Positions 18,807-64,000 of a stretch of DNA of 64,000 nucleotides are shown here, one piece after another (positions within the stretch are counted from its first letter, which is position 1; each line of letters begins with the position of its first letter). The notes below the pieces were generated by a model, which saw only the letters and a list, made by a program, of their open reading frames with translations, made no database searches and was not told where the DNA came from. Location of the stretch: positions 67,615 through 131,614 of the forward strand of contig BTUO01000007.1 in NCBI GenBank assembly GCA_045862895.1, written 5' to 3'. A program made the translations under genes and the position numbers. The stretch comes from Acidobacteriota bacterium (GTDB lineage Bacteria; Acidobacteriota; Thermoanaerobaculia; Multivoradales; JAGPDF01).

Positions 18807-18817
18807 CGAGCTGCTCC

Positions 18818-23707: not shown

Positions 23708-23745
23708 GAGGGTTGGTAGCGTCCGCGGGCGGGTGGAGGGTGGCC

Positions 23746-27510: not shown

Positions 27511-27531
27511 GGCATACCTCCCTCGGAAATT

Positions 27532-27553: not shown

Positions 27554-27609
27554 GGCAGAGGCTCAATGGCGCCCGGGGACGGCCGAGGCGGACCGGCAGG
27601 CGCGGCGCT

Positions 27610-30821: not shown

Positions 30822-30920
30822 CTCCGGGCCTCCCACTCGAACCCAGACAATTGTAGCGGACTCGCTCGACCCCGCCCGGCATGCGCGCCGCGCGCCCGAA
30901 GACCTCTGGAACGGAAGGTT

Positions 30921-31560: not shown

Positions 31561-31645
31561 GGTACCGGGGCCTACGGAACGCGAATAGCCGCGAGCAAGT
31601 CTCGCCGCAATTGCTGGTCGTCCTCCATCCGAAATGAATCCAGGC

Positions 31646-48800: not shown

Positions 48801-51800
48801 CGGCTGGTGGACGGCTCGCAGCTCGGCGAGGCGGACGGGTTGAGTGTGGGCGCCGTCGAGCGGCGACGCCCAGAGGACGACTCGGAGTCGATCCGTCGGA
48901 TAGAGATCCGAGGCGAGCCAGTGCTGCTGCGGGTCCGTGTTGCCCCGCCAAGTCGCAAGTGGCACCCAGACCCCGCCGAACTCCGCCTCGAGGTCGAAAT
49001 CTGTGGGCGCGAACTGGAGCTCGGAGGTCGCGAGCCAGTCGATCTCGACGCGAGCGACGAAGCGCGTTTCCGGCCAGGTGACTTCCAGTGACTGACCCGC
49101 GAGCACTTCGGACTCGTCGACCCAAGGCGCCCAGTAGGTCGCGCCGTCACCGTCGATCGCCATCTCGGCCGAGCCCGGGGGGAAGGACTCGGTCGACGCG
49201 CTGGCCGTCGCGTCGGCGATCGTCGCCGGCGCGAGAACCGACGAGCCGTCCCGCCAAGGGCGGTAGCCGACGACGTCCGGCTCGGGATTCGCGTCCCAAG
49301 TCACGACCACTTCATTCGCTCCGGCGCCCGGCGACGCGACGACGCTCGCGGGCGCCGTGGGCGGCGCGCCGACCGTGACGTCCACGGCGGCGTCGCGCGT
49401 GCGGTTCCCCGCGGGGTCGGTAACCCGGACCGTCAAGGTGTTGACGCCGTCCGCCAGCGGCAGGTCGCTCCAGACGAAACCGCCGTCGGAATCGGTGCCG
49501 ACCGGTGGAATCGGAGCGGTTCCGGTTCCGGAGGCGATCTCGCCCGCCGCGGTTCCGAGGTAGGCGCTCACGCCGGAAAGCGCCGCGACCGGCTGGCGCG
49601 TCGGAGTGTACGGTTGCGTCAGCCGGGGAGTCGCCACCCGCGCCGGCGCCGGGGCCGAGGGCTCGGATTCGTTGTCGGAATCGTCGACGGCGATCACCGC
49701 GTACTCGTAGGGTCCGTCGGCGAGGGCCTCGTCGAGATATCCAGGTGTCGCCACCGGCGTCGCCGTCAGGCGTTCCGACGTCCCGTCCGCACCGGCGCGA
49801 TCGACGTGGTACCCGATGACGTCGGACTCCGGGCTCGCGCTCCAGTCGAGCGTCACGTCCCCGCCGTCGACAGCCGCGACGAGGTCGAGCGGCGCCGACG
49901 GTGGCGTCAGGTCCGCGTAAGTCACGAGAATCGCGGGCGCGGCCGGGTCGGTGGCACCGTTGTCGTCGGTTGCCACGGCCCGCAGCTCGAAGTCGCCGTG
50001 CTCGAGATCGGGCTCGAAGGCGAGCGGATCGAAGGTGGTCTCCCAGGGCGGCTGAACGTCGGTCGAGCCGAACGCCGCCCAGGTGCCGCTGCCCGCGACC
50101 CGCCATTCGAAGACGACGCTCGCGACGTCCTCGTCGTCGCTCTCGGCGCGGACGAAGAGCGGCTCTTCGAAGCGGGCGCCGTCGACCGGGACGACGATCT
50201 CCGCGCGCGGTGGGTGCCGGTCGATCGTGACCTCCGCCGGAGCCGACGGACCGCTGACATTGCCAGCCTGGTCGATCGCCGCCACCAGGTAGGAGAACGT
50301 CCCGTCGGGCCGCCCGGCGTCGAGATAGCTGGTCTCGGACAGCGCGTAACGGCGCAGGTCGCCTTCGACGCCGCCGGGCGCGTTGACCAGCACGCCGTCC
50401 CGGTAGAGCAGGTAGCCGAGCAGGTCGGCCTCGGCGTTGGCGTTCCAGGCGGCCTGGACGTCGCCGGTACCGCCGACGACCGTCGCGGTGAGACCCGTGG
50501 GCGGCGCGGGCGCGACGTTGTCGACGGTGACCACGACCTCCGACACCGCGACGTTGCCCGCGAGGTCCTCGCCCTCGAGCCGCAGGCGGTAGGAGGCCCC
50601 CTCCGGGAGCCCCGCGGTCGACCACTCGTGGATCGCCGCGGCGACCACCGGGACCGGCGACCGACGCAGGAGCGCGGGCTCGCCTCCCGGCTCCGCTCGC
50701 ACGGTCAGGCGGTACTCGCGGAAGTCGTCGACGCTGTAGGCCGTACCCGAGATCACCACCACGCCCGAGACCGTCGTGGCGTCGGACGGCGCGGAGATCG
50801 CCACCGTCGGAGGCGTGACATCGACCACCACGGTCGCTACGTTCGAGGGCGCACCCTCCCAGCCGGCCGCGTCGACGGCGCGAACCACGTAGGCGTGGCT
50901 GCCCTCGGCGAGCGCGGCATCGAGAAGCGTCGGCGCCGGGACCGGCGCGGGCGTCAGCCGCGCGCCGTCGCGATCGACGACGTAGCCGATCACGTCCGGC
51001 TCGGGGCTCGGGCTCCACTCGAGGCGCGCGTCGGAGCCGTTCTCGAGCGTCGCCGTCAGGGTGGTCGGACCCGGCGGGTGGGTGTCGACGCTCAGCGCGA
51101 CCTCGGTCGAGGCGGCGTTGCCGGCGAGGTCGATCGCGGCGAGACGCAGGCGGTAGTCGCCGTCCGAGGGCAGCGCCGCCCAGAGGTGGAGCTGGCCACC
51201 GACGATCGATGAAGCGCCGCCGCCGATCGGCGTGAAGGCCTCGGTGCCCGCCGGCGCCACCGCCAGCGTGTAGCTCTCGAGATGCGCGTCCGCCGCCGTA
51301 CCGAGGATCGGCGCCGGCTCGCGCACCCACGCGCCGGCGGCGGGCGAGTCGATCGCGACCTGCGGTCCGAGGTTGTCGATCGTCAGCTGGACGGAATCGA
51401 CCGCCGACTGGCCCGCGCGATCCTCGGCGATCAGCCTCAGGGTGTAGAGACCATCCGCGACGCCGGTCGGCAGCCAGTCGAGCAGGGTCTCGCCGGCGGG
51501 CAGATCGGCGCCCGAAACGAGCGGAATCCAGGTCGTCGGCGCGGTACCCGCGCCCAGCTCGACGCGCCACTCGGCGAGGTGCTCTTCGGCGACCGCCCCG
51601 CGGATCGCGACCGCGCCGCCGGCGGCACCGAGCAGGTCGCCGTTCGCGGGCGCGAGCAGGTCGACGACGGGAGGCGTGTTGTCGACGACGAACGGCACGA
51701 TCTGCTCGACCTGGATCTCGCCAGCGTCAGCGGCCCGTACGCGCAAGGCGTAGTCGCCCTCGGCGAGCCCCTCCAGGCTGCCGAGCGGTGCGCTCGACTG

Positions 51801-54800
51801 CGCCGCCGAGCCGCTCGCGAGGTCGGTCCAGACCGGGTCGACGGGATCGGAGGCGAGGGCGACCGACCAGGAGACCAGGCGCTCGTCTGCGATCGATCCG
51901 ACGACCTGGCCCTCGCCCGTGACGTAGCCGTCGGCGGGTCGCTCCACCGTGACCGCGGGGGGCGTGCGGTCGAGCTCGACCAGGATCTCCTCGTCCTGGG
52001 TGATCGCCGGGTTGGCCTCGAGCTCGGCGAGGACGCGCACGCGGTAGCGACCGTCCGGAGCCGCGTTCGCGCCGGTATCCGCGCCGTCCCAGAGGAACGT
52101 CGACGCGCCCGGCGCCGCGAGCTGCGCGAGCGCCAGGCGGCGCACGAGCGTGTCGGTCTCGGTGCGGATCTCGACGGTGAGCCGCGACTCGAGCTCGACG
52201 ATCACGCGCGCGGTTGTCGACTCGCGCCGCTCGTCGCCGTTGGGCGAGAACAGCGGCGGCAGCGCCGTCAGGTCGGAGAACAGACGCTCCGGACCGGTGA
52301 GGTCGTAGGTCACGCGATGCTCGTTGCGCAGCCCCCCCCGGTCGGTCGCCCGCAAGCGCAGCGTGTGCTCGCCGGAGAGACCGTAAGTGTTCCAGGTTCC
52401 GAACGGCTCCGAGGGCGGATGCTTCTGGAGGTCGTCCGTAGCGACCTCGATCCAGGTCGTCGGATCCGCTCCGACGCCGAACTCGAGCCGCCACTCCAGG
52501 AAGTTGAGGTCGGTCGCGATCCCCGCGATGGGCACCAGCATCGGCAACGGATCGCCGGGCGCGGGCGAGACGATCTGGGCGACCGGCGGCGTCGCATCGA
52601 CCCGGACGTGGAGGACGCGACTCCACTCGTTGCCGCAGCCGTCGACCGCGGTGACGACGAGTCCGTAGTCGTAGTCCGGAACCAGAGCCAGCGCATCGTC
52701 CTCGCCGCGCCAGACGAACTGCCGCGTGTCGGAGACCGGGATGTCGTCGACGAGCCGCCGCACCCGCGGTCCGACCACCCGCCAGCGGCCGAGAGTCGTG
52801 TCGAACACCGCCGGATGGACGTCGACGTCCAGCGTCACGGGTTGCGTAGCGACGAAAGTGCCGACGGTCTCGTCGAGGACGCCGTCGCCGTCGGGCGAGA
52901 TCAGATCGTCGGAGACTCCGGCCACGCCGCCGACGGCGGCGTCCGCGACGAAGCGGCGCTGACCGCAGATGAGATTGCCTCCGCGATCCCAGACGGCGGC
53001 GCGCACCGTCACCTCGCCGGCGACGCCGGGGTCGACGACGCTTCGGAACGGCCGGGGCGACTCCGTGGACAGGAAGTCCATGCCTTCCCGATTCGACCAG
53101 GAACGCGGCTCCGGATCCGTGTCGAAGCTGAGCCGGGGGGAGTAGCCGCCGGAACCTTCGATCCAGGCTTCATCCACCGTTCCGACGATCTCGAAGCCGC
53201 GTCGGAAGACTCCGGGCCGGATCTCGATCTCCGACGAGCAGAGCTGCTGTCCCTCGAGCGGGTTCGTGATCTCCAGAACCGGTGGCGTGCGGTCGACGAC
53301 ACCGAGCCGCTCGGACTCCATCGTGTCGCCGTCAACGCTCGTGACCCGAGCCACGAATCGATGCTCGCCCTCGGGCAGTTCGGCCATCGCGATCTCGAAG
53401 TCGTAGAGCTCGCCCGGTACCGGCTGATTGAAACTGCCGAGCAGATCCTCCGACCCGTCGGGCAGGCGTCGCGCGAGAGTCAGAAGCTGGAGCGAGGGCG
53501 GGGGCGACCCCGAGTGGAGCCGGGATCCGGCTCGAGCGCGGATCCGACCGGGCGCCGGCTCGCCGCAGACCTCGGCCCGCTCCGGCTCCAATTGGAGGGA
53601 AGCGGCGAAACACGAAGTCTCGGTCGTCTCGACGGCGGTGACGAGCTCGAGGCCTCCGCCAAGTCGCGCCGTGCCATAGGCCCGGTAGCCGCTGCAGAGC
53701 TGCCAGTCCTCGATGACGAACAGGTACTCGCGTACGTCGCCGGCCGGCAGAACGAAGACCGGGTCGAAGCGGCGCCACTCGGAGTACCGCGGATCGTCGT
53801 CGCTCTCGAGGTAGGCGGCCACCGACTCCGGCGGGGTCGCGCTCTCGAGCCGGACGATCACGAAGAGTCCCAGACCGGGCTCGATCGCGCCGGCGGCGAG
53901 CGCCTGCTCGAGCAGGTCGCCCGGCTCGGGGGGCTCGTCGCCGAGCGGTGCGACGTCCGCCACCCGGAATCTCGTCGAGATGCGCCGCCGCACCTGAACG
54001 CTGACGGTTCCGGACAGGTGCTCCGCTCCCTGGCTGTCGATGGCGCGCAGCCGGAGCTCGACATTGCCGGCGCCGAGGATCGGCTCCGGGTCCCACGCCA
54101 CGTCGAAGTAGCGGTCGGGAACGGCGCCGGCGACGTCGAGCGCTCCGACTTCGAAGATCCCCGCGTTGGCGGTCTCGCTCCAGACCGGAGCGCCGGGCGC
54201 CCGATACTGCACGTAGACCTGGGCGAGCACCGCTCGCGCCGTCTCGCCGACTTCGAAGCGGAGGAACCCCTCCGAGAGCACCTCGACCGGAGCGGCCGTG
54301 CAGCCCACGAGCTCCCACCCGGTCGGCAGGCCGGAGACCGGATCCTGGAGTTGCAGCTTGACGGCACCGATCGCCAGCTCTTCCTCCGCGAGCTCCAGCA
54401 GCTCGACGCGCTCGTTGCCCGCCGCGTCGGTGGCGCGCGCGCGATAGCGCCGGTTCACGTAGTCGGAGACCGAGATCCCGGGGCAGTTGGGTGCGCACTC
54501 GGGTGCCGGAACCTCACCCGGCGACAGGAGCGCGTCGAGCCAGGTCGCGGGGTTCGCGCCGACCCCCACCTCGAGCTCGACGCCGGGCGGGTCGTGCGGA
54601 GGATCGAGGGCGCCGGCGAGGAGGCCGAAGCTCCAGGCCGCGTGCCGGTCGTTCGGCAGGCGACCCGGATCGAGGCAGACCAGCCCGCCGTTCGACCAGG
54701 ACAGGGAGACCTCCGGCGCCGTCCGGTCCACCTCCACGAACTGCTCGAGGTCCTGGAGCTCGATCCGGTAGACGCCGTCGCGAACGTGGACACCGCTCTC

Positions 54801-57800
54801 GTCACGGCCGTCCCACTCGATCGACTCCTCCTCCGGCTGTGAGTGGCTCCGTGCGAACGTGCGCACCAGCACGTCGCGGTCATCGTAGATCCGAGTGTCG
54901 ACGTGGAGCGGCTCGAGCGCCCGATAGTGGATCGTCGTCGTCTCGAGGATGCCGTCGCCGTTGGGCGAGAAGACCGTAGGCGAGACCCAGAAGTCGGTCA
55001 CCGAGGGCGTGTCGGTCGCGAAGACGTGCTGCCGGTCGGTGCGGCGGTTGCCGGCGCGGTCCTCGACCGACAGGCGCACGTCGTAGGCGCCGGGCGCGGG
55101 CGGCACCCAGGTCAGGAAGGCCGCGTCGAAGACCTCCGTGGTCGAGGCGGGAGCGACCGGCGTCCAGCTCCCCGGCTCGGTCGCCGGGGCGTACTCGATC
55201 CGGTAGCGGAGGAAGTTGCGGTCGGCGGCGCTGCCCTCGAGCAGGAATCCGGGTCCGTTGGGCGAGCGCCGAGCCCGAAGCTCGGTGCCAAGGTTCAGCA
55301 GCGATCGGAACGCGAAGTAGTCGAGGCCATCCTCCGGGTTCGTGCACGGGTCGACCTCGGGATCGGCCGGTCCCCACGATTCGAAGAAGAGCGCTCGGCC
55401 GTCGGCGCTGAACGTCGGAACCTCGAACACCTCGTAGCCGGGAAACAGCGACGTCCGCCGCGCGTCCTCGTCGAGCTCGACACCGACGAGCGACTCCCCG
55501 TACCAGAACCGGTCGGTGGAGCCCCAGAGGAGCGCGCGGTCGAACGGCGCCCAGATCGGCTCGTGTCCGACCTGGAGCGGCGGCGCGTCGCCCTCTCCCA
55601 TCCCGGCGAGCGATCCGCCGCCACCTCCCCCCGACGACGGTTCGGTCCACGCCACGTGGCGGGCCTCGCCGCTCGCCAGATCGACCACCACGAGCTCGCC
55701 GATCCGGAGGTCTTCGGGTAGCGACCACTCGATCGCCAGCGCGACCTCGCGCGGCGAAGTCCGGGCGCGGGACAACTGCCTGGAATTGACGACGGCACTT
55801 GGCTCGGGCGGTTCGGTCTCGACCAGGTAGTTTCCGATCGGCTCGCCGTCGCGGCCGAAGACGTGCAGGCGGCCGGGCTCGGGATCGAGGACGACGATCC
55901 GCGTCCCGTCGAAGCTCCAGGCCGCGTTCCACCAATCATTGCCGGTGCCGCTCTCCAGAGCGACCAGCAGGCGGCTCGATTCTTCTCCGAGGTCGACGAG
56001 CCAGGCTTCGGCGCCCGCCGACGCACCATCGACGAAGAGAACCAGCCGCGATCGGTCCGGCGAGAAGATGTAGGGCTCGTATTCGTAGGCAAACCAGAGC
56101 GAGCTCGCATCCGGGAAGATCGAGTGCGCGAGCGAGGGGTCTGCGATCGGGACGGTCACCAGCGTGCCGTCCTCGCCCTCGACGAGCAGTCGGTCGCTGT
56201 TGCCATGAAATCCGATCGGGAACGGCGCCGTCGAGGTCGACTGGGGGAGCCGTGCGAGTTGGGTCCCGGCGGCGTCCGAGAACCAGGTCTCCCGCCGAGA
56301 CGTGCAGGGCGAGCCGCGCCAGGTGGCGAAGGCGATCCGCGAGCCGTCGGGCGAAACGCGCAGCGAGGTCTCGATCAAGTCACGCGGGCACGCCGGCAGC
56401 TGCTGGCCGAGTTGCGCTTCGGTGACGACCTGGGTGATCGCGCTCTCCTCGGTGGCGACGCGATAGATCCCGGAGGGATAGGTCGGGTTCCCGTCGACAA
56501 CGACGAACGCGGTCCTGGCGTCGCTCGTCGGCCGAGCGTCGCGGATCGGCGGCAGCTCGCAGGTCGCGTTCTCGACCCACTCGTACGGGGTGCCCAAGGC
56601 GTGGAAGAGCGAAGTCCGATCGGTATCGAGCGTGGCGCGCGCCGCACCGAGCCGCTCGCCCGAGCCCGCGTCGACGACCGTCAGGCGGTACTCCCCGTCG
56701 CGGGCGACGTCTCCGTCCGCGTCGGTGCCATCCCACTCGAAGCTGCCTTCGCCGCCGCTCCACGCGGGATTCGTCTCGCGCCGGACCAGGCGATCGCGAA
56801 CGTCGCGGATTTCGACGGCGAGCTCTACGGGAGCGCCCACCCGGAACGCGAAGGTGGTCGAGTCGAGGACTCCGTCGCCGTTGGGCGAGAAGAAGGGAGC
56901 GCTGACGTAGGAGTCGTCGTCCTGCACCGTGACCTGGATGCCGGCCGAGTTGTTGGCCTCGTCGCCCTCGATCAGCACCTCGTCGGCGTCGACGACGACG
57001 AAGATCGCGGCCTGGCCCGTCGGCTGATCGAAGGTCCACCCGAGAGTCGCGATGCCGCTGGCCTGGCCGGAGACCGGGTCCAGCGTCGAGTCGGCGAGCA
57101 GGACGCCACCAGCGCCCGGATCGCCGAGGAAGGCCCGGACCGCGACCGGAGCCGCGTCCTGCTCGCCGAGGTTTGCGACCTGTACGCTCAAGGTCACCGG
57201 TTCGCCCGGCACCGGGAAGGCCGGATCGAGCGAGAGGCTTCCCGCGCTGATCGCCAGATCCGGAAGGGAATGGACTTCGACGATCTGGAACGTCGAGTTG
57301 TCGGACTCCGTGTGCTCCGCGACCAGCCCCTCGGGATCGACCATCGCGTGGATCACACGATCGCCGGCGTCCGGCACCTCGGTCCAGACCGCCGCGACCT
57401 CTGTCGATCCGCCCGCGACGATCGGCGGCAGCGTCGCCGCAGCGATCTCGATGCCCGACGACGGTGGACCATCGTAGAAGGCCACCCGCGTCTCGCCGGT
57501 CGTGGCGCCGCCGTTGTTGCGCACCTCGATCGAGAGCTCGAGCGGCGAGCCCTCGCGTCCCGGCAGCGGCGAAACCGCGAAGTCTCCCGAAGCCACGGCG
57601 AGGTTGGGCACCGCCAGCGGCGTCGACGGGAAGGCCAGCGACGCCGAGTTGTTGGTCTCGTCGCCCTCGGGAACAAGGTCGTCCGGATCGAGCGTCGCGA
57701 CGAACTGCAGGTCTCCCTCGAGGTCGACGCGCCAGACGACGGTGCGCTCCGCGCTCTGCCCGGGCTCGATCTGGAGGATCACCTCCGGCAGCTCGCGGGT

Positions 57801-60566
57801 CGTCGTCCCGTCGGTCACCGCGAAGGCGGCGGTGAAGGAGCCGCCACCGACCGTGCCCCGGTTGCGCATCCCGACCTGGAACCGGACATCGGCGCCGGGA
57901 TGGGCCGGGCCGTCGAGCAGCGTGAGGTCGGCTCCCGTCACCTCGAGATCGATCGCCGGCGAGGTGGTCACCGTCGCGCTCGCCTGGTTGTTGTCCTCGT
58001 CGGCTTCGACCACCACCGCGTCCGGATCGAGAACCAGCGTGAAGGCGAAGGAGCCGGGCTCGTCCAGCGTGTCGAAGAAGCTCACCGGCGCGGACGCGCG
58101 CGCCGGCAGAGCGATCGTCTGTTCGCCGAGCACCTCGCCGCCGGCGCCCTCGCCGCGATGGAGCCGGATCAACGCTTCGGGGACGTCGGTCGAGCCCAGG
58201 TTGCGGACCGTCGCGACGATCGCGACCTCGACCGGAAGCACCGCCGGGTGCGGCGGCAGGAAGGAGATCTCGTCCGCTCGCACCGAGAGGTCCGCCTCCA
58301 CCGGCGCGGGATCGATCTCGACCGGCAGCGTCGCGCGGTTGTTGCTCTCGCTCGCCTCCTCGATCGCTTCGTCCGCATCCAGGATCACGTGAACCACGTG
58401 CGTTCCCGGGTCGAGCCCGGTGGTATCCCATGCGATCGCCAGCGTCGTCGAAGCGAGGGTCGCGAGCTCGGAGAGCTCGACGTCGGGGCCGATCGGTTGC
58501 CCGCCGGAGTCCGGGTCCCCGTCGAAGAGCCGCAGCACCGACGCGGGCGCGGCGAGCGCGCCCGCGTTGCGGACCGGGATCGTCAGCTGCACGAGCTCGC
58601 CGACGACCGGCGCCGCGGGCTCGGCGGCGAGCGCCCCGGCGAACGCCAGGTCCGGGAAGCGGGCCTGACTCAGCGTGGCGGCGACTCGTGCGGTCGTGTA
58701 GACGCTGCCCTCCCAGCTTCCCTCGATCGTCTGCCGTCCGTCGAGATAGGCGACCGCGGCGGCCAGGTCGACCTCGCCGGCCTCGTCGAGAGCCCGGATC
58801 GTGTCGACGACCTGTGCCGTGTCGTGCGCCGTGCTCGGGCTGTCGCCGAAGCCGCCATCCGGGTTCTGACGTCCGGCGATCCAGGAGAGCGCGTCCGGAC
58901 CCGGCGCCGAAACGCGGTCGAGCGCGACCAGGGCGGCGAGCGCCGCGGTCGTCGGGGCGATGCGGCTCGCACCGTCCGCGGCCGCCCCCCAGCCGCCGTC
59001 CGGGTTCTGGGCGTCGACGAGCCAGTTGCCCGCGCGGACCAGGGCAGGATGAGAGCTCGCGAGGCCGCTCGAACGGAGCGCTTCGATCGCCATCGCCGTG
59101 TCGATCGGATCACTCCCGTAGCGCGCCCCCGCACCCCAGCCGCCATCGGAGTTCTGTCGCGCCAGCAGGGCGCTGGTCAGCGCGGAGTTCGACGTGTTCG
59201 GCTGGAGGCGCCCGAGTGCAGCGAGCGTCCGCGCTGCGTAGTCGCTGCTCGGCGGCACCTCGAGCTCGAGCCAGTCCGCGGCCTCTGCGCCCCGCACGAA
59301 CAGCGAGTCGAGCTCGGTCAGGACGCTCGCCGCGACCGCCGTATCGCGCGTGCTCGTCTCGGGCTTGTCTTGCCAGGAGCCGTCGGACCCCTGTCGCGAG
59401 CGCAGCCAGGCGAGCGCGTCCGGGAGGCTCGCGGATCCGCCTCGAGGATCTCCCGGGTCGACGGGCCCGGGTCCCCCTCCCCCCGAACCTCCCGGCGGCG
59501 CGAGCGTCACTTCGAGGCTCGCGCGACCGCCCGTCAGGATCGCAAAGCGGATCTCGAGCGCGCGCCGGAACCGCTCGAGCGCCAGCAGCTCCGCGTCGCT
59601 CGGCGTCGCGCCCGGGCGCACCAGGTAGAGCACCGCGGCGCGGAATCGATCCGGACTCTCCCCGGCGGCGGGAACGCGCGGTCCCTCGGCCGCGACGATG
59701 TCGTCGATCGTCACCGTCACCGCGCCACCCTGAATGGTCTCCCCTGGCTGGCCACGCCGCTGCGGTTCGATCGTGGGGTTGTCGATCAGCAGCAGGGGTG
59801 GGATCTCGTCGGGTCCTGCGAACCCGGCGAGGTAGAGGTCGAGCGGCCCCCAGACCTTGTCGACGGCGAGCGAGGTGAAGCTGCCGTTGCCATCGTCGCG
59901 CCAGTCGTTGCCGTAGAGCACCGACCCTTGCGAGTCGTACAGATAGCTCCAGTGGCTCTCCCCGGTCGTCAACGCGCCCGAAAGTGAGCCGTCCGGGAGG
60001 CGAAACCGGAGTCGTGTCCCCCAGGTGTGCAGGATCTCGTGGGTCGCCGCGACCAGCAGGAGCTCGAAGCCCGGATCCAGCGGATCGAGCGCGTAGCGTG
60101 ACAGGGCAGCCAGATCGACGTAGTTGCGCAACCGGCCGGCGCTGCCGAAATCGTCGCTGAGGTCGTAGGCCGGAAGGTTGATCCCCTGAACGTCGTTGCG
60201 AACCAACCAGGCCATCGCGGTCGCCCCGTCGGTGTCGAACTCGAAGTCGGTCGCGACCAGGAGGAAGTCGTAGTCGTCGCCGTGCTCCTCGTAGAAGGCC
60301 CGCGCGACGTCCATCCGGGCACCGAAGTTGGGCTCTCCGTCGCCGAACGAACGGTCGTAGTCGCCGAGCACCTCGAACACCGAAACGCCGCCGCGATCCT
60401 CGATCGGAACGACGAGCGCCTCCGGTGCCTGCGGCGCTCGCGAGGGAGAACGCTGCCCATCGGCGATCACGACGCAAGATGCCTCGGCGGCGACCGGATC
60501 CGCGCCGGCACCGAACGCGGCGACCAGCGCAGCGACGAGCGCGACCGAGACGCGCCGGAAGTTCAT
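42792..60566 (-). CDS. giant (5924 aa) secreted multidomain surface/adhesin-like protein
   Basis: MNFRRVSVALVAALVAAFGAGADPVAAEA is a signal peptide. An N-terminal HExxH motif (ATHEILHTWG, with an E about 27 aa later) follows. Next come prenyltransferase / alpha-macroglobulin-like toroid repeats (SDGSWQD, QNSDGGWG, QNPDGGWG, QNPDGGFG). The body carries multiple CARDB-like modules, FlgD-Ig-like FSPNGDG modules, PD40/TolB-like SPDGxxxA repeats, FN3-like modules (DVIGYxVDRDG), an F5/8-discoidin-like segment, and three Calx-beta-like modules. The C-terminal NDFNLFLWGDL...GRLAAGGDVDL domain is choice-of-anchor-A-like. The ORF is continuous. Confidence 0.85.
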   Translation of the reverse strand: MNFRRVSVALVAALVAAFGAGADPVAAEASCVVIADGQRSPSRAPQAPEALVVPIEDRGGVSVFEVLGDYDRSFGDGEPNFGARMDVARAFYEEHGDDYDFLLVATDFEFDTDGATAMAWLVRNDVQGINLPAYDLSDDFGSAGRLRNYVDLAALSRYALDPLDPGFELLLVAATHEILHTWGTRLRFRLPDGSLSGALTTGESHWSYLYDSQGSVLYGNDWRDDGNGSFTSLAVDKVWGPLDLYLAGFAGPDEIPPLLLIDNPTIEPQRRGQPGETIQGGAVTVTIDDIVAAEGPRVPAAGESPDRFRAAVLYLVRPGATPSDAELLALERFRRALEIRFAILTGGRASLEVTLAPPGGSGGGGPGPVDPGDPRGGSASLPDALAWLRSRQGSDGSWQDKPETSTRDTAVAASVLTELDSLFVRGAEAADWLELEVPPSSDYAARTLAALGRLQPNTSNSALTSALLARQNSDGGWGAGARYGSDPIDTAMAIEALRSSGLASSHPALVRAGNWLVDAQNPDGGWGAAADGASRIAPTTAALAALVALDRVSAPGPDALSWIAGRQNPDGGFGDSPSTAHDTAQVVDTIRALDEAGEVDLAAAVAYLDGRQTIEGSWEGSVYTTARVAATLSQARFPDLAFAGALAAEPAAPVVGELVQLTIPVRNAGALAAPASVLRLFDGDPDSGGQPIGPDVELSELATLASTTLAIAWDTTGLDPGTHVVHVILDADEAIEEASESNNRATLPVEIDPAPVEADLSVRADEISFLPPHPAVLPVEVAIVATVRNLGSTDVPEALIRLHRGEGAGGEVLGEQTIALPARASAPVSFFDTLDEPGSFAFTLVLDPDAVVVEADEDNNQASATVTTSPAIDLEVTGADLTLLDGPAHPGADVRFQVGMRNRGTVGGGSFTAAFAVTDGTTTRELPEVILQIEPGQSAERTVVWRVDLEGDLQFVATLDPDDLVPEGDETNNSASLAFPSTPLAVPNLAVASGDFAVSPLPGREGSPLELSIEVRNNGGATTGETRVAFYDGPPSSGIEIAAATLPPIVAGGSTEVAAVWTEVPDAGDRVIHAMVDPEGLVAEHTESDNSTFQIVEVHSLPDLAISAGSLSLDPAFPVPGEPVTLSVQVANLGEQDAAPVAVRAFLGDPGAGGVLLADSTLDPVSGQASGIATLGWTFDQPTGQAAIFVVVDADEVLIEGDEANNSAGIQVTVQDDDSYVSAPFFSPNGDGVLDSTTFAFRVGAPVELAVEIRDVRDRLVRRETNPAWSGGEGSFEWDGTDADGDVARDGEYRLTVVDAGSGERLGAARATLDTDRTSLFHALGTPYEWVENATCELPPIRDARPTSDARTAFVVVDGNPTYPSGIYRVATEESAITQVVTEAQLGQQLPACPRDLIETSLRVSPDGSRIAFATWRGSPCTSRRETWFSDAAGTQLARLPQSTSTAPFPIGFHGNSDRLLVEGEDGTLVTVPIADPSLAHSIFPDASSLWFAYEYEPYIFSPDRSRLVLFVDGASAGAEAWLVDLGEESSRLLVALESGTGNDWWNAAWSFDGTRIVVLDPEPGRLHVFGRDGEPIGNYLVETEPPEPSAVVNSRQLSRARTSPREVALAIEWSLPEDLRIGELVVVDLASGEARHVAWTEPSSGGGGGGSLAGMGEGDAPPLQVGHEPIWAPFDRALLWGSTDRFWYGESLVGVELDEDARRTSLFPGYEVFEVPTFSADGRALFFESWGPADPEVDPCTNPEDGLDYFAFRSLLNLGTELRARRSPNGPGFLLEGSAADRNFLRYRIEYAPATEPGSWTPVAPASTTEVFDAAFLTWVPPAPGAYDVRLSVEDRAGNRRTDRQHVFATDTPSVTDFWVSPTVFSPNGDGILETTTIHYRALEPLHVDTRIYDDRDVLVRTFARSHSQPEEESIEWDGRDESGVHVRDGVYRIELQDLEQFVEVDRTAPEVSLSWSNGGLVCLDPGRLPNDRHAAWSFGLLAGALDPPHDPPGVELEVGVGANPATWLDALLSPGEVPAPECAPNCPGISVSDYVNRRYRARATDAAGNERVELLELAEEELAIGAVKLQLQDPVSGLPTGWELVGCTAAPVEVLSEGFLRFEVGETARAVLAQVYVQYRAPGAPVWSETANAGIFEVGALDVAGAVPDRYFDVAWDPEPILGAGNVELRLRAIDSQGAEHLSGTVSVQVRRRISTRFRVADVAPLGDEPPEPGDLLEQALAAGAIEPGLGLFVIVRLESATPPESVAAYLESDDDPRYSEWRRFDPVFVLPAGDVREYLFVIEDWQLCSGYRAYGTARLGGGLELVTAVETTETSCFAASLQLEPERAEVCGEPAPGRIRARAGSRLHSGSPPPSLQLLTLARRLPDGSEDLLGSFNQPVPGELYDFEIAMAELPEGEHRFVARVTSVDGDTMESERLGVVDRTPPVLEITNPLEGQQLCSSEIEIRPGVFRRGFEIVGTVDEAWIEGSGGYSPRLSFDTDPEPRSWSNREGMDFLSTESPRPFRSVVDPGVAGEVTVRAAVWDRGGNLICGQRRFVADAAVGGVAGVSDDLISPDGDGVLDETVGTFVATQPVTLDVDVHPAVFDTTLGRWRVVGPRVRRLVDDIPVSDTRQFVWRGEDDALALVPDYDYGLVVTAVDGCGNEWSRVLHVRVDATPPVAQIVSPAPGDPLPMLVPIAGIATDLNFLEWRLEFGVGADPTTWIEVATDDLQKHPPSEPFGTWNTYGLSGEHTLRLRATDRGGLRNEHRVTYDLTGPERLFSDLTALPPLFSPNGDERRESTTARVIVELESRLTVEIRTETDTLVRRLALAQLAAPGASTFLWDGADTGANAAPDGRYRVRVLAELEANPAITQDEEILVELDRTPPAVTVERPADGYVTGEGQVVGSIADERLVSWSVALASDPVDPVWTDLASGSAAQSSAPLGSLEGLAEGDYALRVRAADAGEIQVEQIVPFVVDNTPPVVDLLAPANGDLLGAAGGAVAIRGAVAEEHLAEWRVELGAGTAPTTWIPLVSGADLPAGETLLDWLPTGVADGLYTLRLIAEDRAGQSAVDSVQLTIDNLGPQVAIDSPAAGAWVREPAPILGTAADAHLESYTLAVAPAGTEAFTPIGGGASSIVGGQLHLWAALPSDGDYRLRLAAIDLAGNAASTEVALSVDTHPPGPTTLTATLENGSDARLEWSPSPEPDVIGYVVDRDGARLTPAPVPAPTLLDAALAEGSHAYVVRAVDAAGWEGAPSNVATVVVDVTPPTVAISAPSDATTVSGVVVISGTAYSVDDFREYRLTVRAEPGGEPALLRRSPVPVVAAAIHEWSTAGLPEGASYRLRLEGEDLAGNVAVSEVVVTVDNVAPAPPTGLTATVVGGTGDVQAAWNANAEADLLGYLLYRDGVLVNAPGGVEGDLRRYALSETSYLDAGRPDGTFSYLVAAIDQAGNVSGPSAPAEVTIDRHPPRAEIVVPVDGARFEEPLFVRAESDDEDVASVVFEWRVAGSGTWAAFGSTDVQPPWETTFDPLAFEPDLEHGDFELRAVATDDNGATDPAAPAILVTYADLTPPSAPLDLVAAVDGGDVTLDWSASPESDVIGYHVDRAGADGTSERLTATPVATPGYLDEALADGPYEYAVIAVDDSDNESEPSAPAPARVATPRLTQPYTPTRQPVAALSGVSAYLGTAAGEIASGTGTAPIPPVGTDSDGGFVWSDLPLADGVNTLTVRVTDPAGNRTRDAAVDVTVGAPPTAPASVVASPGAGANEVVVTWDANPEPDVVGYRPWRDGSSVLAPATIADATASASTESFPPGSAEMAIDGDGATYWAPWVDESEVLAGQSLEVTWPETRFVARVEIDWLATSELQFAPTDFDLEAEFGGVWVPLATWRGNTDPQQHWLASDLYPTDRLRVVLWASPLDGAHTQPVRLAELRAVHQPILAATTLTETVPDGVHEYRVSALTTLGFESALSEPATIGVGDTTPPEPVVLAAEVTGSDVALSWTASPSPDVERYEVWRDGTNIGERTDLGNRTWLDAGLPNGTYLYVVVAVDGAGHSSPPSNAVEALVAVELPAPPTDLFVTPVAGGGALDLAWQPPSGPAPSGYRVHRAEVAGGPYSPVADAPAPAHRDGGLVDGSTYYYVVSALDAAGNESSASNEASGTPTDELPPPAPVLTFPAFAGAPRITLRSPIPVAGFAAEGAEIELRRNAVYAGEAVAASEFAVESLADVVWTAARLSPDGRWLWVEDDFGAAYVRRLDGPEVVDLPEGNGRVRWSADGGSAYVVDGAAVRRFDVADEALEVVAALDEARIAAPSPSGDRLAVVALRAGQSGVWVLDLDSGDWTLTVATATLDDLGEALEWSPAGTHLAWLRTTGATEIEVAEIETGLVVATLPASDGALSWSPDGAALLWTSSASGSDQVWRHDLASATSEAVTAEPGEHAMPRWAPHAASFACVRDGGEVLEVDLEDGAARTWPVELFAGIEQLEWVAGGTALVVSDLTPSRIEPPGRFEVPGVALAGGDNRLVAIARDLAGNASVPSAETLVHLRGEALPNLAVLGPELVVLPAVPLAGGMARVTVVVRNLGGAAAPASDLTAAVSGPQGFVAVLAEGLAVPPLPPGGSAVFGFDLSLPSVAGSYLAAAAVDAAGVVVEANEDDNAAERAFLVAADGTPLLELATDRTTYGEDDTVELTAALFNAGSTFDGWIEIAIEDANGFELAELEPEAVIGLEHGATLEVERTWSTEGVFAGLYQARARLFDLDGAEIAQTTAPFEIGEVFYLSVIAASERPWYTIGESAPVSGRIRYEAGNALLSGAIARLAVIDPDGVAVAQWQQPLGDLLPGAVASVVRTFATAGAEPGVHRVRVEVERGGSVLAVGEVPFELRTAPAALLGMLALSNPQPAIGEPLIAVYSVTNAGGADAFAVPIRTRLIDPATGIELARSESVIDLPAGATHAGSALFATDELGLAPYLAVLEAYWVDGGAPAWLVLDAEGFATADRTPPLATLIVPAHSGLVGAQARAQATAVDQHSTVVSVAVAVDGGDWQPLALEEATLGLWGAALAPMAEGSHSVRLRARDAWDNEALTAEHPFEVDLTPPVIVVDGVEEGGIYPEPVLPVITVEDLHPGWFVVTLDGASLPAGTPVDQEGAHTLRVLAEDAAGNRATSELHFTIEALLPEASVTAAEVVEGDATGGELSFVVTLSQAVTRPVSVTYQTVDGTATDGSDFVGAAGILTFDPGAINGAIPVSVIGDLLDEIDETLTLEIGSPQGATIGQATAVGTILDDDLPAVAVDDVTITEGDAGSQDAVVTLTLSTPGLEAVELDVATADGSATAGLDYTAVAESVSFAPGEVSATVAVPVLGDVLLEPDQTFTLELGTPSYGTLADATGLVTIVDDELCPGPELLVNPGAESPLIDGELAGWIEVVGGLWRPRWLEPVPVEGEASFFPGAVATAELVQEIDLAPYASAIDEGAQAFRFSGRVYSADEAIPDLARIVVEYRDEPGTVLDLFDSGALASPATWSVIEDERAAPAGTRRIRVRLLAERFTEPDLDAYFDALSLVSLRAAAISVGGVGVTEPAPGETAWAEFPVLLACPTDRTTAVEFVTRDGEAEAGADYEAASGTLEVPATATSAQVAVEVLGDKQLESPETFFLDLAAGSEEVVVGAEAVARIDDAGCATEPLGLANDFNLFLWGDLLQSHGDVGGRLAAGGDVDLEAVSVGESLPGRDGAALVAGDGLSFAGGRVIHGDAIYGDWAAVEGVAIPDGVLRSGAPIDFEAERAALVALSGSLATLAANGSTTLTPRGGLRLVGVDPTLNVFEIDAAQLAAATSLILRAPAGSTALVNVAGTQIIAASFPIALENVRSDHVLFNFAEAEDVVFEELVFRGSVLAPYAVLGFVEAVVEGTVVAESLKLDGQLDHAPFAGCLPPPDPVPNCIEEGACE

Positions 60567-61174
60567 CTCGGCTTCCCGTCAGGGGCTGGGCGGCGCACCG
60601 TGCGGGCGCCTTTCGGCGCGGGCGCTTCGGTCTGTACCGGAAGGGCTCCTCGCGCGGCCGTCAGACTCTCGTCGCGGGTGCGGAGGACGCGCAGCCTGGG
60701 CTCGCCGGCTCGCTCCGCGCGCAGCAACCAGACTTCGCGGATCTCCTCGAGACCTCGGGCACCTTGCGAGGGACGGAGCAGCACGCGGTCCGAGCGCAGA
60801 CCGACGACTTCGAGGGCCTCGATCTGGTCGCCCGGTCGCACCACTCGGAGGTCGCCGCCGGTGCGTCCGACGACGGCCGCTCCGGTCGCCGGATCGCAGG
60901 CGACCAGATACCAGGACTGGAGCGCCTCGAGTGGAGCGGATCCGGAAGAGAGGAGGTCGGGCGCGGTCGCCCCGGCCGGCGGTTCGCCCGGATCGCGAGA
61001 CGTGCGCTCCGATTCCTCAGTTGCCGGCGGCGCGGGAGCGGCGCCCGGAGCATCGGCGATCGCCGCCAGCGGCGACGCCGTGATCACCAGGCCGACGGCC
61101 ACCCGCGCCGCGCCGTAGCGCAGCGTCCCGGACGACCCTCGCCGCTTCGAGACTCTCCCCGTCCTTGCCACCAT
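60563..61174 (-). CDS. hypothetical secreted protein (204 aa), translationally coupled to the giant gene
   Basis: The ATG at 61174 gives MVARTGRVSKRRGSSGTLRYGAARVAVGLVITASPLAAIADA, a signal-like N-terminus. The C-terminal half (VVRPGDQIEALEVVGLRSDRVLLRPSQGARGLEEIREVWLLRA) is vaguely GspC/PilP/SAF-like. Its stop overlaps the giant-gene ATG (ATGA at 60563..60566). The upstream Arg-rich part of track ORF 60563..61588 was rejected. Confidence 0.5.
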   Translation of the reverse strand: MVARTGRVSKRRGSSGTLRYGAARVAVGLVITASPLAAIADAPGAAPAPPATEESERTSRDPGEPPAGATAPDLLSSGSAPLEALQSWYLVACDPATGAAVVGRTGGDLRVVRPGDQIEALEVVGLRSDRVLLRPSQGARGLEEIREVWLLRAERAGEPRLRVLRTRDESLTAARGALPVQTEAPAPKGARTVRRPAPDGKPR

Positions 61175-61475: not shown

Positions 61476-62876
61476 CTACCCCGCCAGGGCAGCCAGTGCG
61501 GCTCTGTCGACCTTGCCGCGGTCGGTGCGGGGGAGGTCGGGGACGAGGATGACGCTCCTTGGCACCTTGTGCTCGGCGAGGTGGGCACGGCAGTAGGCGA
61601 CGACCTGGTCGTAGGCGAGGGCGCCGGTGGGGGCGGCGACGACGGCGCGTAGGACCGAGTGGGGGCCGTCGGGGCCGGCGACGCCGAGGACGCAGGCGTC
61701 CTCGACGCCGGGCATCGTCTTCAGCACGCGCTCGACTTCGTGGGGGTCGACGTTCCTGCCGCGCACGATCACCAGGTCGTCGGCGCGGCCGAGGAGGCGG
61801 ACTTCGCCGGTCGCGGCGTCGAGCTCGGCCAGGTCGCCGGTGCGAAAGCGGCCGTCCGCGAGCTCGGGGGCGGCGTCCGGGAGGTAGGTCGCAGCGACCG
61901 CGCGCGAGCGGACTTCGAGTCGTCCCGTCTCCGGGTCGATCGCGAGCGTCACGCCGTCGACCGCGGTGCCCACCGAACTGCGCTCGGCGGCGTCGCCTTC
62001 GCGGTCGTAGGCGATGCCGCCGCACTCCGAGGCACCGTAGAAGATGTGCACCGGCTGGCCGAAGCGCTCGCGGAAACGCGCCGCCACCTCGGGCGCGAGC
62101 GGCGCGCCGGCGGCGATCACGCGGCGGATCGACTCCGGCCACGGCGGGAGCGCCGAGAGCTTGACCAGCGCGGCGATCCACGCCGGCACCGTCGGAAAGA
62201 ACGTGGCGCCAAGCTCGCGGGCCACCGCCAGCGGCGCCAGCGGCGAGCGCTCGTCGGCGACCAGCAGCGTCGAGCCGCGCACCAGTGCCGGCAGCACCAG
62301 GCTCGAGAAGCCGTAAGAATGCGAGAAGGGGACCGCGGCGAGCAGGCGATCTTCGGCGACCAGGCCCATCGAGGTCGCGAGCTGCTCGTCGTCGGCGAGG
62401 ACCGCGTCGCCCGGTACCGCGATGCCGCGCGGCTCGCCGGTCGAGCCCGAGGTCAGCTTGATCGCGCCCCAGGCCGGATCGGCGTCGAGCCGCCGCTCCG
62501 GCACGCGGCGGTCGAGGTCCCAGTCGGCGGCGGCGTCCGGCCAGCCCATCGCCGAGGCGAGGAAGCCGACCACGCCGAGCCGGTCGAGGGTCGCCAACCG
62601 GTCGGGGGTCGGCCGCGCGCTGTCGCACAGCACCGGCACCGCGCCGATCCGGCGCACCGCGAGCAGGCCGGCGAGGAACGCGGGACCGGGCGCGGCGGCG
62701 AGCCCCAGGGCGTCCCCGGGTCCGAAGCTGTCCCCGAGGAGACGTACCGCGAGCTCGCGCGCGGCGCGGTCGACGTCGCCGACGCTCCACGCGCGCGACG
62801 GCGAGGCGACGAGCGGCGCACCGGCGCGGCGTTCGGCGAGCGCCGCGAAGGCGGCGAGGAGCGGGTCGGAGGTCAT
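61476..62876 (-). CDS. AMP-dependent synthetase/ligase (ANL adenylate-forming enzyme)
   Basis: KLTSGSTGEPRGIAV is the AMP-binding motif. YGASECGG, FRTGDLAELD and VIVRGRNV are also present. Length is 466 aa. A TATACT lies 18 nt upstream of the ATG. Confidence 0.85.
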   Translation of the reverse strand: MTSDPLLAAFAALAERRAGAPLVASPSRAWSVGDVDRAARELAVRLLGDSFGPGDALGLAAAPGPAFLAGLLAVRRIGAVPVLCDSARPTPDRLATLDRLGVVGFLASAMGWPDAAADWDLDRRVPERRLDADPAWGAIKLTSGSTGEPRGIAVPGDAVLADDEQLATSMGLVAEDRLLAAVPFSHSYGFSSLVLPALVRGSTLLVADERSPLAPLAVARELGATFFPTVPAWIAALVKLSALPPWPESIRRVIAAGAPLAPEVAARFRERFGQPVHIFYGASECGGIAYDREGDAAERSSVGTAVDGVTLAIDPETGRLEVRSRAVAATYLPDAAPELADGRFRTGDLAELDAATGEVRLLGRADDLVIVRGRNVDPHEVERVLKTMPGVEDACVLGVAGPDGPHSVLRAVVAAPTGALAYDQVVAYCRAHLAEHKVPRSVILVPDLPRTDRGKVDRAALAALAG

Positions 62877-64000
62877 GGTGGGCGGCCGGGAAGTATACTG
62901 GCGACCGGTCCGACCGAGCGGATCCGCCGAGCCCCTTGACGACCCCCGAGACCCGTTTCGATGCCGACGTCGCCGTGGCCGGCGGCGGTCCGGCGGGAGC
63001 CGCCGCCGCCATCACCCTGGCCCGGTGCGGGCGCCGCGTGATCCTGCTCGAGCGCGAGGCCTTCCCCCGCTTCCACATCGGCGAGTCGCTGCTCGCCGCC
63101 GCCCATCCGGCCTTCGACGCGCTCGGGGTGACCGACAAGGTGCGCGCGGCCGACTTCCCGGTCAAGTGGGGGGCACGCCTGCTGACCCACGAGGGGGCCT
63201 CGGGGCGCGACGTCAACTTCGCCAACTCGCGCGAAGTGCCGAAGCCGCAGACCTGGCAGGTCTGCCGCGAGAAGCTCGACCAGATCCTGCTCGATCACGC
63301 TCGCGACTCGGGGGCCGAGGTGCGCGAGCGCCGGCGGGTGACCACGGTCGAACTCGAGGCCGACGGCGTTCGCCTCCACGTCGCCGGCCCCGACGGCGCC
63401 GCCGAGACCGTGCGCGCCCGCGCCGTCGTCGACGCCACCGGCCGCGCCGGCCTGCTCTCGCGCCAGCTCGACCTGCGCGTCGACGAGCCGCTCCTCGCCA
63501 ATGTCGCGATCTACTCCCACTTCGAAGGGGTGCCGCAGCTGCCCGACGACCGGCCCGGCGACATCCGCATCGTCGCCCGCGCGGACGCCGGCTGGTTCTG
63601 GCTGATCCCGATCGACGGCCGTTTGACGAGCGTCGGCGTGGTGCTGCCGCGCGGGCTCTACGACCGGCTCGAGAAGGGGTCGCCGGAGGCGATGCTCGAG
63701 GCCTGCGTCGGCGACACACCGGCGGTCGCCGCGCTGATGGCGAGCGCGCGCCGCGCCTGGCCGGTGCGGGTCGAGAAGGACTATTCCTACGGCGCGCGCG
63801 CATACGCGGGAGACCGCTGGCTGTTGGCCGGCGACGCCGGCTCGTTCCTCGATCCGGTCTTTTCGAGCGGCGTCTCGATCGCGCTCGAGAGCGGCATCGA
63901 AGCCGGTCGCGAGCTCGACGCCGCGCTCACCGCGGGCGATCTCTCGGCGCGCCGCTTCCGCGGCTTCGACCGCGTCCAGCGCCGGCGCTTCGCGATCTTC
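62875..64000 (+). CDS. flavin-dependent halogenase-like FAD enzyme (PltA/Bmp2-type), 3'-truncated by window edge
   Basis: DVAVAGGGPAGAAAAITLARCG is the GxGxxG fold. FPRFHIGESLL is the halogenase-type FAD motif. GWFWLIPIDG is the WxWxIP motif. GDAGSFLDPVFSSGVSIALESG is also present. The start is either the ATG at 62875 or the GTG at 62878, overlapping the divergent ligase start (CATG). Confidence 0.7.
   Translation, partial: MVGGREVYWRPVRPSGSAEPLDDPRDPFRCRRRRGRRRSGGSRRRHHPGPVRAPRDPARARGLPPLPHRRVAARRRPSGLRRARGDRQGARGRLPGQVGGTPADPRGGLGARRQLRQLARSAEAADLAGLPREARPDPARSRSRLGGRGARAPAGDHGRTRGRRRSPPRRRPRRRRRDRARPRRRRRHRPRRPALAPARPARRRAAPRQCRDLLPLRRGAAAARRPARRHPHRRPRGRRLVLADPDRRPFDERRRGAAARALRPAREGVAGGDARGLRRRHTGGRRADGERAPRLAGAGREGLFLRRARIRGRPLAVGRRRRLVPRSGLFERRLDRARERHRSRSRARRRAHRGRSLGAPLPRLRPRPAPALRDL

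Follow-up and report, generated by a model that had tools for sequence, protein, structure and literature searches.

At the right edge of a 64-kb stretch of DNA from an uncultured, Thermoanaerobaculia-like Acidobacteriota bacterium (contig BTUO01000007.1, positions 67,615 to 131,614; 71% G+C overall; hereafter the window), a gene for an adenylating enzyme of the ANL family diverges from a gene for a flavin-dependent halogenase, here called Hal1. With a second halogenase-like gene elsewhere in the window (Hal2), and with genes for an acyl carrier protein (ACP), a ketosynthase (KS) and a KS-like partner of the chain-length-factor type (CLF) beyond its end, they make up a six-gene cassette. On balance, and with a confidence only slightly above even, this cassette is read as a reduced, doubly halogenating core of an aryl-polyene/xanthomonadin-type type II polyketide synthase (PKS). 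Its product would most likely be a halogenated aryl-polyene-like compound that is built on a carrier protein, from a gene set conserved in uncultured soil Acidobacteria, and the cassette would thus represent a trimmed relative of a known pigment pathway, not a new type of system.

A six-gene cassette around the halogenase Hal1

The genes beyond the window are found on two Logan contigs, L001 and L002, that match the final 4 kb of the window at 100% identity and encode exactly its ANL enzyme. On these contigs Hal1, whose open reading frame (ORF) runs past the window end, has a full length of 439 aa and is followed directly by an ACP of 97 aa and by a KS and a CLF of 406 aa each (Table 1). The first-pass annotation of the window had proposed a carrier-protein-dependent halogenating locus at the edge and had suggested a search to the right for a carrier protein, a flavin reductase and a thioesterase (TE). 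The carrier protein and further biosynthetic genes are indeed present beyond the edge, but neither a TE nor a flavin reductase occurs within 7.4 kb to the right of the window. The Hal1/ACP, ACP/KS, and KS/CLF junctions each consist of a 4-bp ATGA or GTGA overlap, which points to translational coupling of the four genes. Downstream of the CLF gene lie a HAMP-SpoIIE phosphatase and then an SrkA/YihE-type kinase, both unrelated.

Judged by their active-site residues, the three downstream proteins qualify as a candidate minimal type II PKS. The KS retains the Cys-His-His active site (the active-site Cys in ATACASA, with HGTGT and KACVGH), and the ACP keeps the phosphopantetheine serine (LDS, within LGLDSV). 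At the positions of the KS triad, the partner protein reads TQREAS, SGASG and KGVTGE. Since Cys, His and His are all lost, this partner is assigned as a chain-length-factor-type subunit, although Glu, and not the canonical Gln, replaces the Cys.

In relatives from Thermoanaerobaculia, Holophagales, and metagenome contigs, the cassette is laid out as ANL followed by Hal2 in one direction and Hal1 followed by ACP, KS, and CLF in the other. The same gene order, at 53–81% identity, is found in nine related loci (L003, L005, L007, L009, L013, L031, L088, L094, and L095), and the ANL orthologues that diverge from Hal1 in these relatives are 55–68% identical to the ANL of the window. A second ORF of the tryptophan-halogenase type had been noted in the window, and it proves to belong to the same system as ANL and Hal1. 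This Hal2 gene shows 65–81% identity to its counterparts in L003, L005, L007, and L088, each of which overlaps the stop codon of ANL by 4 bp, and by this similarity it is taken as the orthologue of the gene after ANL and thus as the cognate sixth gene of the cassette. Hal2 and ANL are adjacent in relatives, whereas about 31 kb separates them here, as the cassette is split in this genome by a toxin and adhesin island that lies outside the pathway (30340..61171, minus strand; Table 1). In the close relative L095, in which Hal1 is 89% identical, only a HepT/MNT toxin-antitoxin pair is found at the ANL/Hal2 junction. Together with the ParE and Rhs genes of the window, this suggests that the junction seems to gather toxin-type cargo.

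For pathway comparison, the aryl-polyene (APE) cluster of Escherichia coli CFT073, apeA-R (c1204-c1186), served as the reference set, through direct protein comparison and tblastn. More distant cassettes, in which Hal1 is 45–50% identical, occur in other Acidobacteriota, in a Planctomycetaceae metagenome-assembled genome (MAG), and in others. In L047 and L050, an ApeJ-like glycosyltransferase and an ApeQ-like ketoreductase (KR) follow the CLF gene, while L057 encodes homologues of ApeA and ApeG; a DUF2062-methyltransferase and a polysaccharide deacetylase also accompany the distant cassettes. In L055 the Hal1 homologue comes after an ApeE-like ACP within a cluster that also holds homologues of ApeR, ApeF, ApeK, and MMPL and that otherwise looks like a canonical APE cluster. 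Hal1 adjoins an ApeE-like ACP in differing layouts and in several phyla (L044, L050, L055, and L057). Two further contigs, L025 and L029, carry a Hal1 homologue near a KS, an ACP, and a short-chain dehydrogenase/reductase, though their ORFs are fragmented with few Pfam matches and they were not used. The gene caller, based on third-position G+C content (GC3), served as a guide only, with several genes missed or placed on the wrong strand.

Predicted halogenases, proposed starter loading, and the pathway assignment

The translation of Hal1 contains FPRFHIGESL, WFWLIPI, and GDAGSFLDPVFSSG, as had been reported, and matches Pfam Trp_halogenase (E=6.7e-25) as well as FAD_binding_3. Its best matches among solved structures are CndH (3e1t, 207 bits), then ChlB4, CmlS, Mpy16, PltA (175 bits), and Bmp2 (152 bits), while monooxygenases score at most 50 bits. 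In these alignments K77 of Hal1 falls on the catalytic Lys of CndH, ChlB4, and CmlS and E50 on the Glu of the GES motif, with K71 and E44 of CmlS as the reference residues. The concern that this enzyme could align better with non-halogenating monooxygenases that lack the conserved Lys and Glu is thereby removed. The GxGxxG motif (GGGPAG), E50, K77, W220-x-W222-x-I-P (I224, P225), and GDAGSFLDP are invariant in 22 homologues, and the C-terminal 75 residues are distinct and highly conserved. The best NCBIfam match is CmlS at 203–210 bits, far under the equivalog cutoff of 900. From its GxGxxG, WxWxIP, Lys, and Glu residues, Hal1 is predicted to be a flavin-dependent halogenase of the carrier-linked class. 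Action on a carrier-tethered substrate is suggested by genomic linkage, that is, by the overlap with the ACP gene and by the adjacency of the two across phyla. At E<=1e-20 the relatives of Hal1 exceed 6800 proteins, and those with a name that come nearest to it belong to MAGs of Thermoanaerobaculia and Holophagales.

Hal2 is more divergent, with a top score of 78 bits against solved structures, though its best matches are all halogenases (8zop, Bmp2, and PltA). The Lys (LPKEG/LPKHG), the WxWxIP motif (WVWFIP), and GDAAAFxDPxYSPG are conserved in 19 orthologues, and the dinucleotide-binding motif takes the variant form GGAxxG. Like Hal1, Hal2 has a conserved hydrophobic C-terminal region.

The ANL enzyme was called correctly as a 466-aa protein, with both Pfam AMP-binding domains (Table 1). 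Motifs A3, A5, A7, A8, and A10 are intact (TSGSTGEPRG, YGASECG, RTGDL, GRADDLVIVRGRNV, and PRTDRGK), including the A10 lysine. In length it resembles ApeH (466 aa vs. 452 aa), and it is probably a short acyl/aryl-ACP synthetase of that size class, which makes its proposed role as the activating partner of the halogenase plausible. The best solved relative is 4-chlorobenzoate-CoA ligase (112 bits), and the prolyl-carrier ligase 7thn scores 67 bits. The nearest relative is thus compatible with an aromatic acid substrate but is not decisive. E. coli ApeH itself matches no specific NCBIfam model.

The assignment to the APE type draws on the carrier protein and the ketosynthase. Identity to ApeE reaches 38% for the ACP (E=8e-16), and identity to ApeO reaches 36% for the KS (E=7e-52), ApeE and ApeO being the proteins that define NCBIfam NF006617 and NF006618. 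In the APE pathway, ApeH charges an ACP directly with 4-hydroxybenzoate, the starter ACP of choice being ApeE, and ApeO and ApeC form the KS-CLF pair (PMC8253772). The cassette consists of two divergent operons with a 59-bp spacer between them. In the proposed mechanism, the short ApeH-like ANL enzyme would adenylate a carboxylic acid starter, most likely an aromatic one such as hydroxybenzoate, and load it directly onto the ApeE-like ACP. Hal1 would then halogenate the ACP-tethered substrate through Lys77, consuming O2 and halide and receiving its FADH2 from a reductase encoded elsewhere; the residues for this are present, while both the activity and the substrate are deduced. The Cys-His-His KS and its catalytically dead CLF partner would extend the chain with malonyl units, ketoreduction and dehydration would be supplied by unlinked enzymes or by those of fatty acid synthase, and Hal2 would add a second halogen, as in the dibrominated xanthomonadins.

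Several observations weigh against this assignment. Although the best NCBIfam match of the ACP is NF006617, its score of 52.2 bits stays under the cutoff of 70, which E. coli ApeE exceeds with 89.5. For the KS, NF006618 ranks only third, narrowly below two FabF-type models, and its 283.5 bits fall short of the cutoff of 407; the KS is nearer to FabF throughout (304 bits with the FabF model; 243 bits with Thermus FabF vs. 157 bits with ApeO, 6qsp). No similarity was detected between the full-length CLF of 406 aa and the 240-aa ApeC, and the similarity between ANL and E. coli ApeH is weak (23% identity over 410 aa, E=3e-7). No chorismate-utilising enzyme is linked that could provide an aryl starter. 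The 64-kb window and the 7.4 kb to its right hold no homologues of KR, dehydratase (DH), TE, acyl- or glycosyltransferase, LolA, or MMPL, and a tblastn search with the E. coli Ape proteins found no ape KR, DH, TE, attachment, or export genes within 10 kb on either side in close relatives. ApeQ, ApeI/P, ApeR, and ApeK are absent from the window, from L002, and from the same 10-kb flanks of close relatives, and are found only in the distant L047, L050, and L055; ApeD, J, L, M, and N were not found by tblastn in the window or in close relatives. The cassette may be one half of a split pathway, may borrow FabG/FabZ, or may make a non-reduced product. Finally, Hal1 homologues of about 60% identity occur alone or with a Hal2-like gene only, in Ca. 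Udaeobacter and other phyla, so that Hal1 may not need this ACP.

The lack of linked reductive genes leads to the first alternative, in which the cassette would suffice by itself as a minimal halogenating PKS and carry out no reductive steps. From the starter loaded by ANL, the KS-CLF pair would make a short acyl-ACP of the beta-keto or poly-beta-keto type, and Hal1 and Hal2 would halogenate its alpha-carbon or a resorcinol or pyrone ring formed spontaneously, giving small haloketones, phenols, or haloform-type products and not a polyene. The cassette of Thermoanaerobaculia and Holophagales, which comprises exactly six genes among varied neighbours that lack KR, DH, and TE, speaks for this proposal, as do the FabF-like KS and the best NCBIfam match of Hal1, since the substrate of CmlS is acyl and not aromatic. 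Yet L047 and L050 carry the ApeQ-like KR directly after the CLF gene, along with ape-type accessory genes, which argues for a reducing, APE-like ancestry; no cyclase or aromatase is present, and unlinked KR and DH genes could still exist elsewhere in the genome. We regard a non-reducing pathway as unlikely, though as the most probable of the alternatives. Slightly less likely is the broader proposition that the six genes are complete in themselves, yield a small halogenated metabolite such as an alpha-halogenated beta-keto compound or a halophenol, and, together with the stand-alone relatives of Hal1 and Hal2 that are very abundant in Acidobacteriota and Ca. Udaeobacter, constitute an unrecognised source of organohalogens in soil.

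It has to be weighed as well whether Hal1 and Hal2 work together, without an ACP, on a substrate that is either free or bound to the membrane, in which case their linkage to ANL, ACP, KS, and CLF would reflect substrate supply or coincidence. This would suit the homologues just described, which stand alone or, in Ca. Udaeobacter and other Verrucomicrobia, are accompanied by no more than a Hal2-like gene, and the hydrophobic C-terminal regions of both enzymes; in a crude neighbour-joining tree, moreover, cassette-linked and stand-alone Hal1 sequences interleave. Nevertheless, the 4-bp stop/start overlap couples Hal1 to the ACP gene, Hal1 stands beside an ApeE-like ACP in the four loci of differing layout named above, and the nearest solved relatives (CndH, PltA, Mpy16, Bmp2, and ChlB4) mostly act on carrier-tethered substrates. 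An ACP-independent role is accordingly given a small probability.

The first-pass annotation had instead described the halogenase as PltA/Bmp2-type. In a pathway of that kind, ANL would load proline or hydroxybenzoate, the pyrrole or phenol would be polyhalogenated, and a TE would release the product. The motif set of Hal1 (FPRFHIGES, WxWxIP, and GDAGSFLDPVFSSG), its scores with PltA and Bmp2, and the carrier protein that follows the halogenase would all suit such a pathway. It is nonetheless quite improbable, as CndH, ChlB4, CmlS, and Mpy16 outscore PltA and Bmp2, the locus has neither a TE nor a prolyl-carrier dehydrogenase of the PltE/Bmp3 (acyl-CoA-dehydrogenase) type, ANL scores higher with the 4-chlorobenzoate ligase than with the prolyl-carrier ligase, and the halogenase is accompanied by a KS-CLF pair, an ApeE-like ACP, and ape-type accessory genes. 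Least probable of all is that Hal1 and Hal2 share the fold of halogenases but serve as hydroxylases, as cofactor maturases, or as reductases, in the manner of QhpG, LodB, or geranylgeranyl reductase. Although Hal1 also matches QhpG (140 bits) and the geranylgeranyl-reductase subfamily (130 bits, cutoff 159) and Hal2 has its variant GGAxxG motif, WxWxIP, Lys, and Glu are invariant or conserved, all top solved matches are halogenases, with monooxygenases at 50 bits or less, and the curated cutoff of no non-halogenase family is reached.

Corrected coordinates, the shared spacer, and neighbouring genes

The coordinates of the cassette genes and of the island that separates them are given in Table 1. 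The start codons of ANL and Hal1 had previously been taken to overlap on opposite strands at a CATG tetranucleotide, leaving no intergenic promoter space. This tetranucleotide exists at 62874..62877, but the plus-strand ATG at 62875 reads MVGGREVYW..., in a frame that differs from that of Hal1. In the Hal1 frame, analysis found no ATG, GTG, or TTG from the upstream stop at 62459 until the TTG at 62936. Because no earlier start codon is available, Hal1 is taken to begin at this TTG and the spacer to measure 59 bp, and the claim that promoter space is lacking falls together with the wrong-frame reading on which it was built. The next candidate start, a GTG at 62975, sits within the first Rossmann strand and would truncate it. 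For ANL, the ATG at 62876 is the most upstream start possible, with an in-frame stop at 63012..63014. Independent gene calls on related contigs give equivalent spacers of 56–70 bp. In L088, however, the public gene call (10001..11383) gives a 460-aa Hal1 orthologue that overlaps the ANL start by 2 bp. Once aligned with Hal1 of the window, this orthologue more likely begins some 54 nt further on, at a TTG, and the public call is probably the same error as the start overlap described for the window. As a public call repeats it, annotators should be mindful of the TTG start of Hal1.

Table 1. Positions of the cassette genes, their shared spacer, and the intervening island (window coordinates unless contig L002 is named).
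Feature	Coordinates	Strand	Evidence or remark
Hal2, second flavin-dependent halogenase-like enzyme, longer, 521 aa	28702..30267	-	Pfam Trp_halogenase E=7.9e-17
ParE toxin	30340..30636	-	Pfam ParE_toxin
RHS fragment	30624..31334	-	Pfam
Rhs-repeat protein, 3582 aa	32053..42801	-	Pfam: 17 RHS repeats, DUF6531, transglutaminase core
Surface protein, 5924 aa	42792..60566	-	CARDB, FlgD_ig, Calx-beta domains
ORF, 202 aa	60563..61171	-	
ANL adenylating enzyme, 466 aa	61476..62876	-	Pfam AMP-binding E=1.6e-41, AMP-binding_C E=1.6e-12
ANL/Hal1 divergent intergenic region, 59 bp	62877..62935		Frame analysis
Palindrome AGTATACT	62892..62899		Both strands read TATACT (-10-like)
Hal1, predicted flavin-dependent halogenase, carrier-linked CndH/PltA class	62936..64000	+	TTG start; ~355 of 439 codons inside the window
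ACP, PP-binding carrier protein, 97 aa	L002 5752-6045	-	Off-window
KS, ketosynthase, 406 aa	L002 4535-5755	-	Off-window
CLF, KS-like partner, 406 aa	L002 3318-4538	-	Off-window

The spacer contains the palindrome AGTATACT, placed 36 nt ahead of the TTG start of Hal1 and, on its other side, 15 nt from the start codon (ATG) of ANL. Its heptamer GTATACT is found once in the 64-kb window, against an expectation of 0.25. Among 15 cassette loci scanned, spanning 3–21 kb each, 13 contain the heptamer exactly once and always in the ANL/Hal1 spacer, and the full palindrome is kept in 11 of these 13. In most loci the motif is positioned 32–53 nt upstream of the Hal1 start and 7–15 nt from the ANL start. 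A scan of 62700..63100 for consensus sigma-70 promoters and terminators found no full promoter and no terminator. The palindrome is probably a bidirectional -10 element, which would serve both divergent transcripts; such sharing would leave the ANL mRNA with a very short leader or none. As a single conserved motif within a 59-bp spacer, it offers a clean candidate for a bidirectional promoter in a phylum poor in promoter data.

On the plus strand at 14246..17535, a zinc-type alcohol dehydrogenase, a DUF455/ferritin-like protein, and a 3-hydroxyacyl-CoA dehydrogenase are encoded in an arrangement that is syntenic in Thermoanaerobaculia and Holophagales at 72–81% identity. This trio was considered as part of the cluster and rejected, as its synteny is limited to close relatives, variable genes intervene, and it is absent from the distant cassettes; owing to that absence, it is probably neighbourhood and not pathway. 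Downstream of Hal2, the minus strand at 25087..28647 encodes an 807-aa TonB-dependent receptor and a 345-aa NTP_transf_8 nucleotidyltransferase. An 807-aa TonB-dependent receptor also comes directly after Hal2 in L095, so the receptor may belong to the conserved surroundings of Hal2 within this sub-lineage. Region 20255..25002 includes a 1097-aa Ser/Thr kinase with AAA_16 and TPR domains, which is also found beside Hal2 in L005 of Holophagales, followed by a 454-aa FAD oxidoreductase of the DAO family.

Farther to the left, a 719-aa protein (17691..19850, minus strand) has a radical SAM/SPASM-like core at residues ~380–560 and a long N-terminal region without a family match; at the syntenic position, relatives have an unrelated gene of about 700 aa with no Pfam match. 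The possibility that this ORF is an antisense artefact was examined and set aside, as the gene at the same position in L003 is unrelated and has no radical-SAM match on either strand. At the left end (1..13871, minus strand), four consecutive large ORFs of 780 (partial), 924, 981, and 1917 aa have no Pfam or PDB match and carry ELWxxDGT repeats throughout (TIGR04534, 313–484 bits each).

Outside the cassette, contigs of Ca. Udaeobacter/Verrucomicrobia (L010-L012, L016, L021, L023, and L089) encode a Hal1 homologue of about 60% identity together with a Hal2-like protein that is 36–38% identical to Hal2, without ANL, ACP, or KS. In L089 a cation:proton antiporter gene stands between both halogenase genes, and the same kind of gene lies directly upstream of a Hal2-like gene on a Janthinobacterium plasmid (L093). 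A Na+/H+ antiporter is also listed near the halogenase in the table of the arcuflavin cluster. Plasmid collections yielded only relatives of Hal1 and Hal2 at 27–37% identity; one of these, a stand-alone gene in a Ralstonia flagellar region, and another, beside a type I PKS in Janthinobacterium, were discarded as uninformative on the cassette.

Comparison with known pathways

Aryl-polyene clusters are among the most widespread families of bacterial biosynthetic genes. To our knowledge, their halogenated versions have barely been studied, and the xanthomonadin halogenase is uncharacterised. A literature search for aryl polyenes with a halogenase in Acidobacteria or Thermoanaerobaculia returned no relevant papers, a broader one yielded only general papers on APE and type II PKS, and a search on PDB 9S5H likewise returned no relevant papers. 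The cassette adds a compact and strongly conserved variant from uncultured Thermoanaerobaculia and Holophagales, with two halogenases apparently wired to a starter ACP, in a six-gene set small enough to be tractable for heterologous expression. Since soil metagenomes contain so many members of the Hal1 family, knowledge of the substrate of this family would also inform estimates of bacterial halogenation in soil.

Compared with the APE cluster of E. coli CFT073, the cassette shares a short ANL enzyme, an ACP that resembles the starter ACP ApeE, and an ApeO-related KS with an inactive partner, and through its distant forms only, homologues of ApeA, G, J, K, and Q as well as MMPL. It differs in that no ApeR, ApeQ, ApeI/P, ApeK, ApeD/J, or ApeL/M/N is linked, in that it has two predicted flavin-dependent halogenases where the E. 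coli cluster has none, in its arrangement as two divergent operons as opposed to a single co-directional run, and in its CLF, which is a full-length KS paralogue in contrast to the 240-aa ApeC.

In the xanthomonadin and arcuflavin clusters, of Xanthomonas and Azoarcus, a halogenase is combined with an AMP-ligase, an ACP, and a KS whose partner is CLF-like; xanthomonadins carry 0–2 bromines (PMC3691225, PMC3949708). Compared by description only, they are type II PKS systems of the aryl-polyene type with a halogenase, as is proposed for the cassette, and the range of 0–2 bromines would match its two halogenases. These clusters additionally encode the XanB2 chorismatase, KR, DH, acyltransferases, exporters, and a methyltransferase.

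Likeness also extends to the Iga11/12 pair of ishigamide biosynthesis (6kxd) and to FabF, given the scores of the KS (188 bits with 6kxd, 243 bits with Thermus FabF) and a CLF without Cys, His, and His. The cassette is unlike the highly reducing type II PKS pairs in having no linked KR or DH and in the Glu, instead of Gln, at the Cys position of its CLF.

Among halogenases, Hal1 is closest to the "variant B" enzymes CndH, ChlB4, CmlS, Mpy16, PltA, and Bmp2, with which it aligns over ~355 residues at 152–207 bits, sharing GxGxxG, the GES Glu, the catalytic Lys, WxWxIP, and GDAxxFxDPxFSSG. The overlap of its gene with a carrier-protein gene is a further likeness to the carrier-linked class. In contrast to "variant B" systems, the partners of Hal1 are a KS-CLF pair and not a nonribosomal peptide synthetase, a type I PKS, or a prolyl dehydrogenase, and the cassette includes in Hal2 a longer, more divergent paralogue that scores at most 78 bits against any solved structure.

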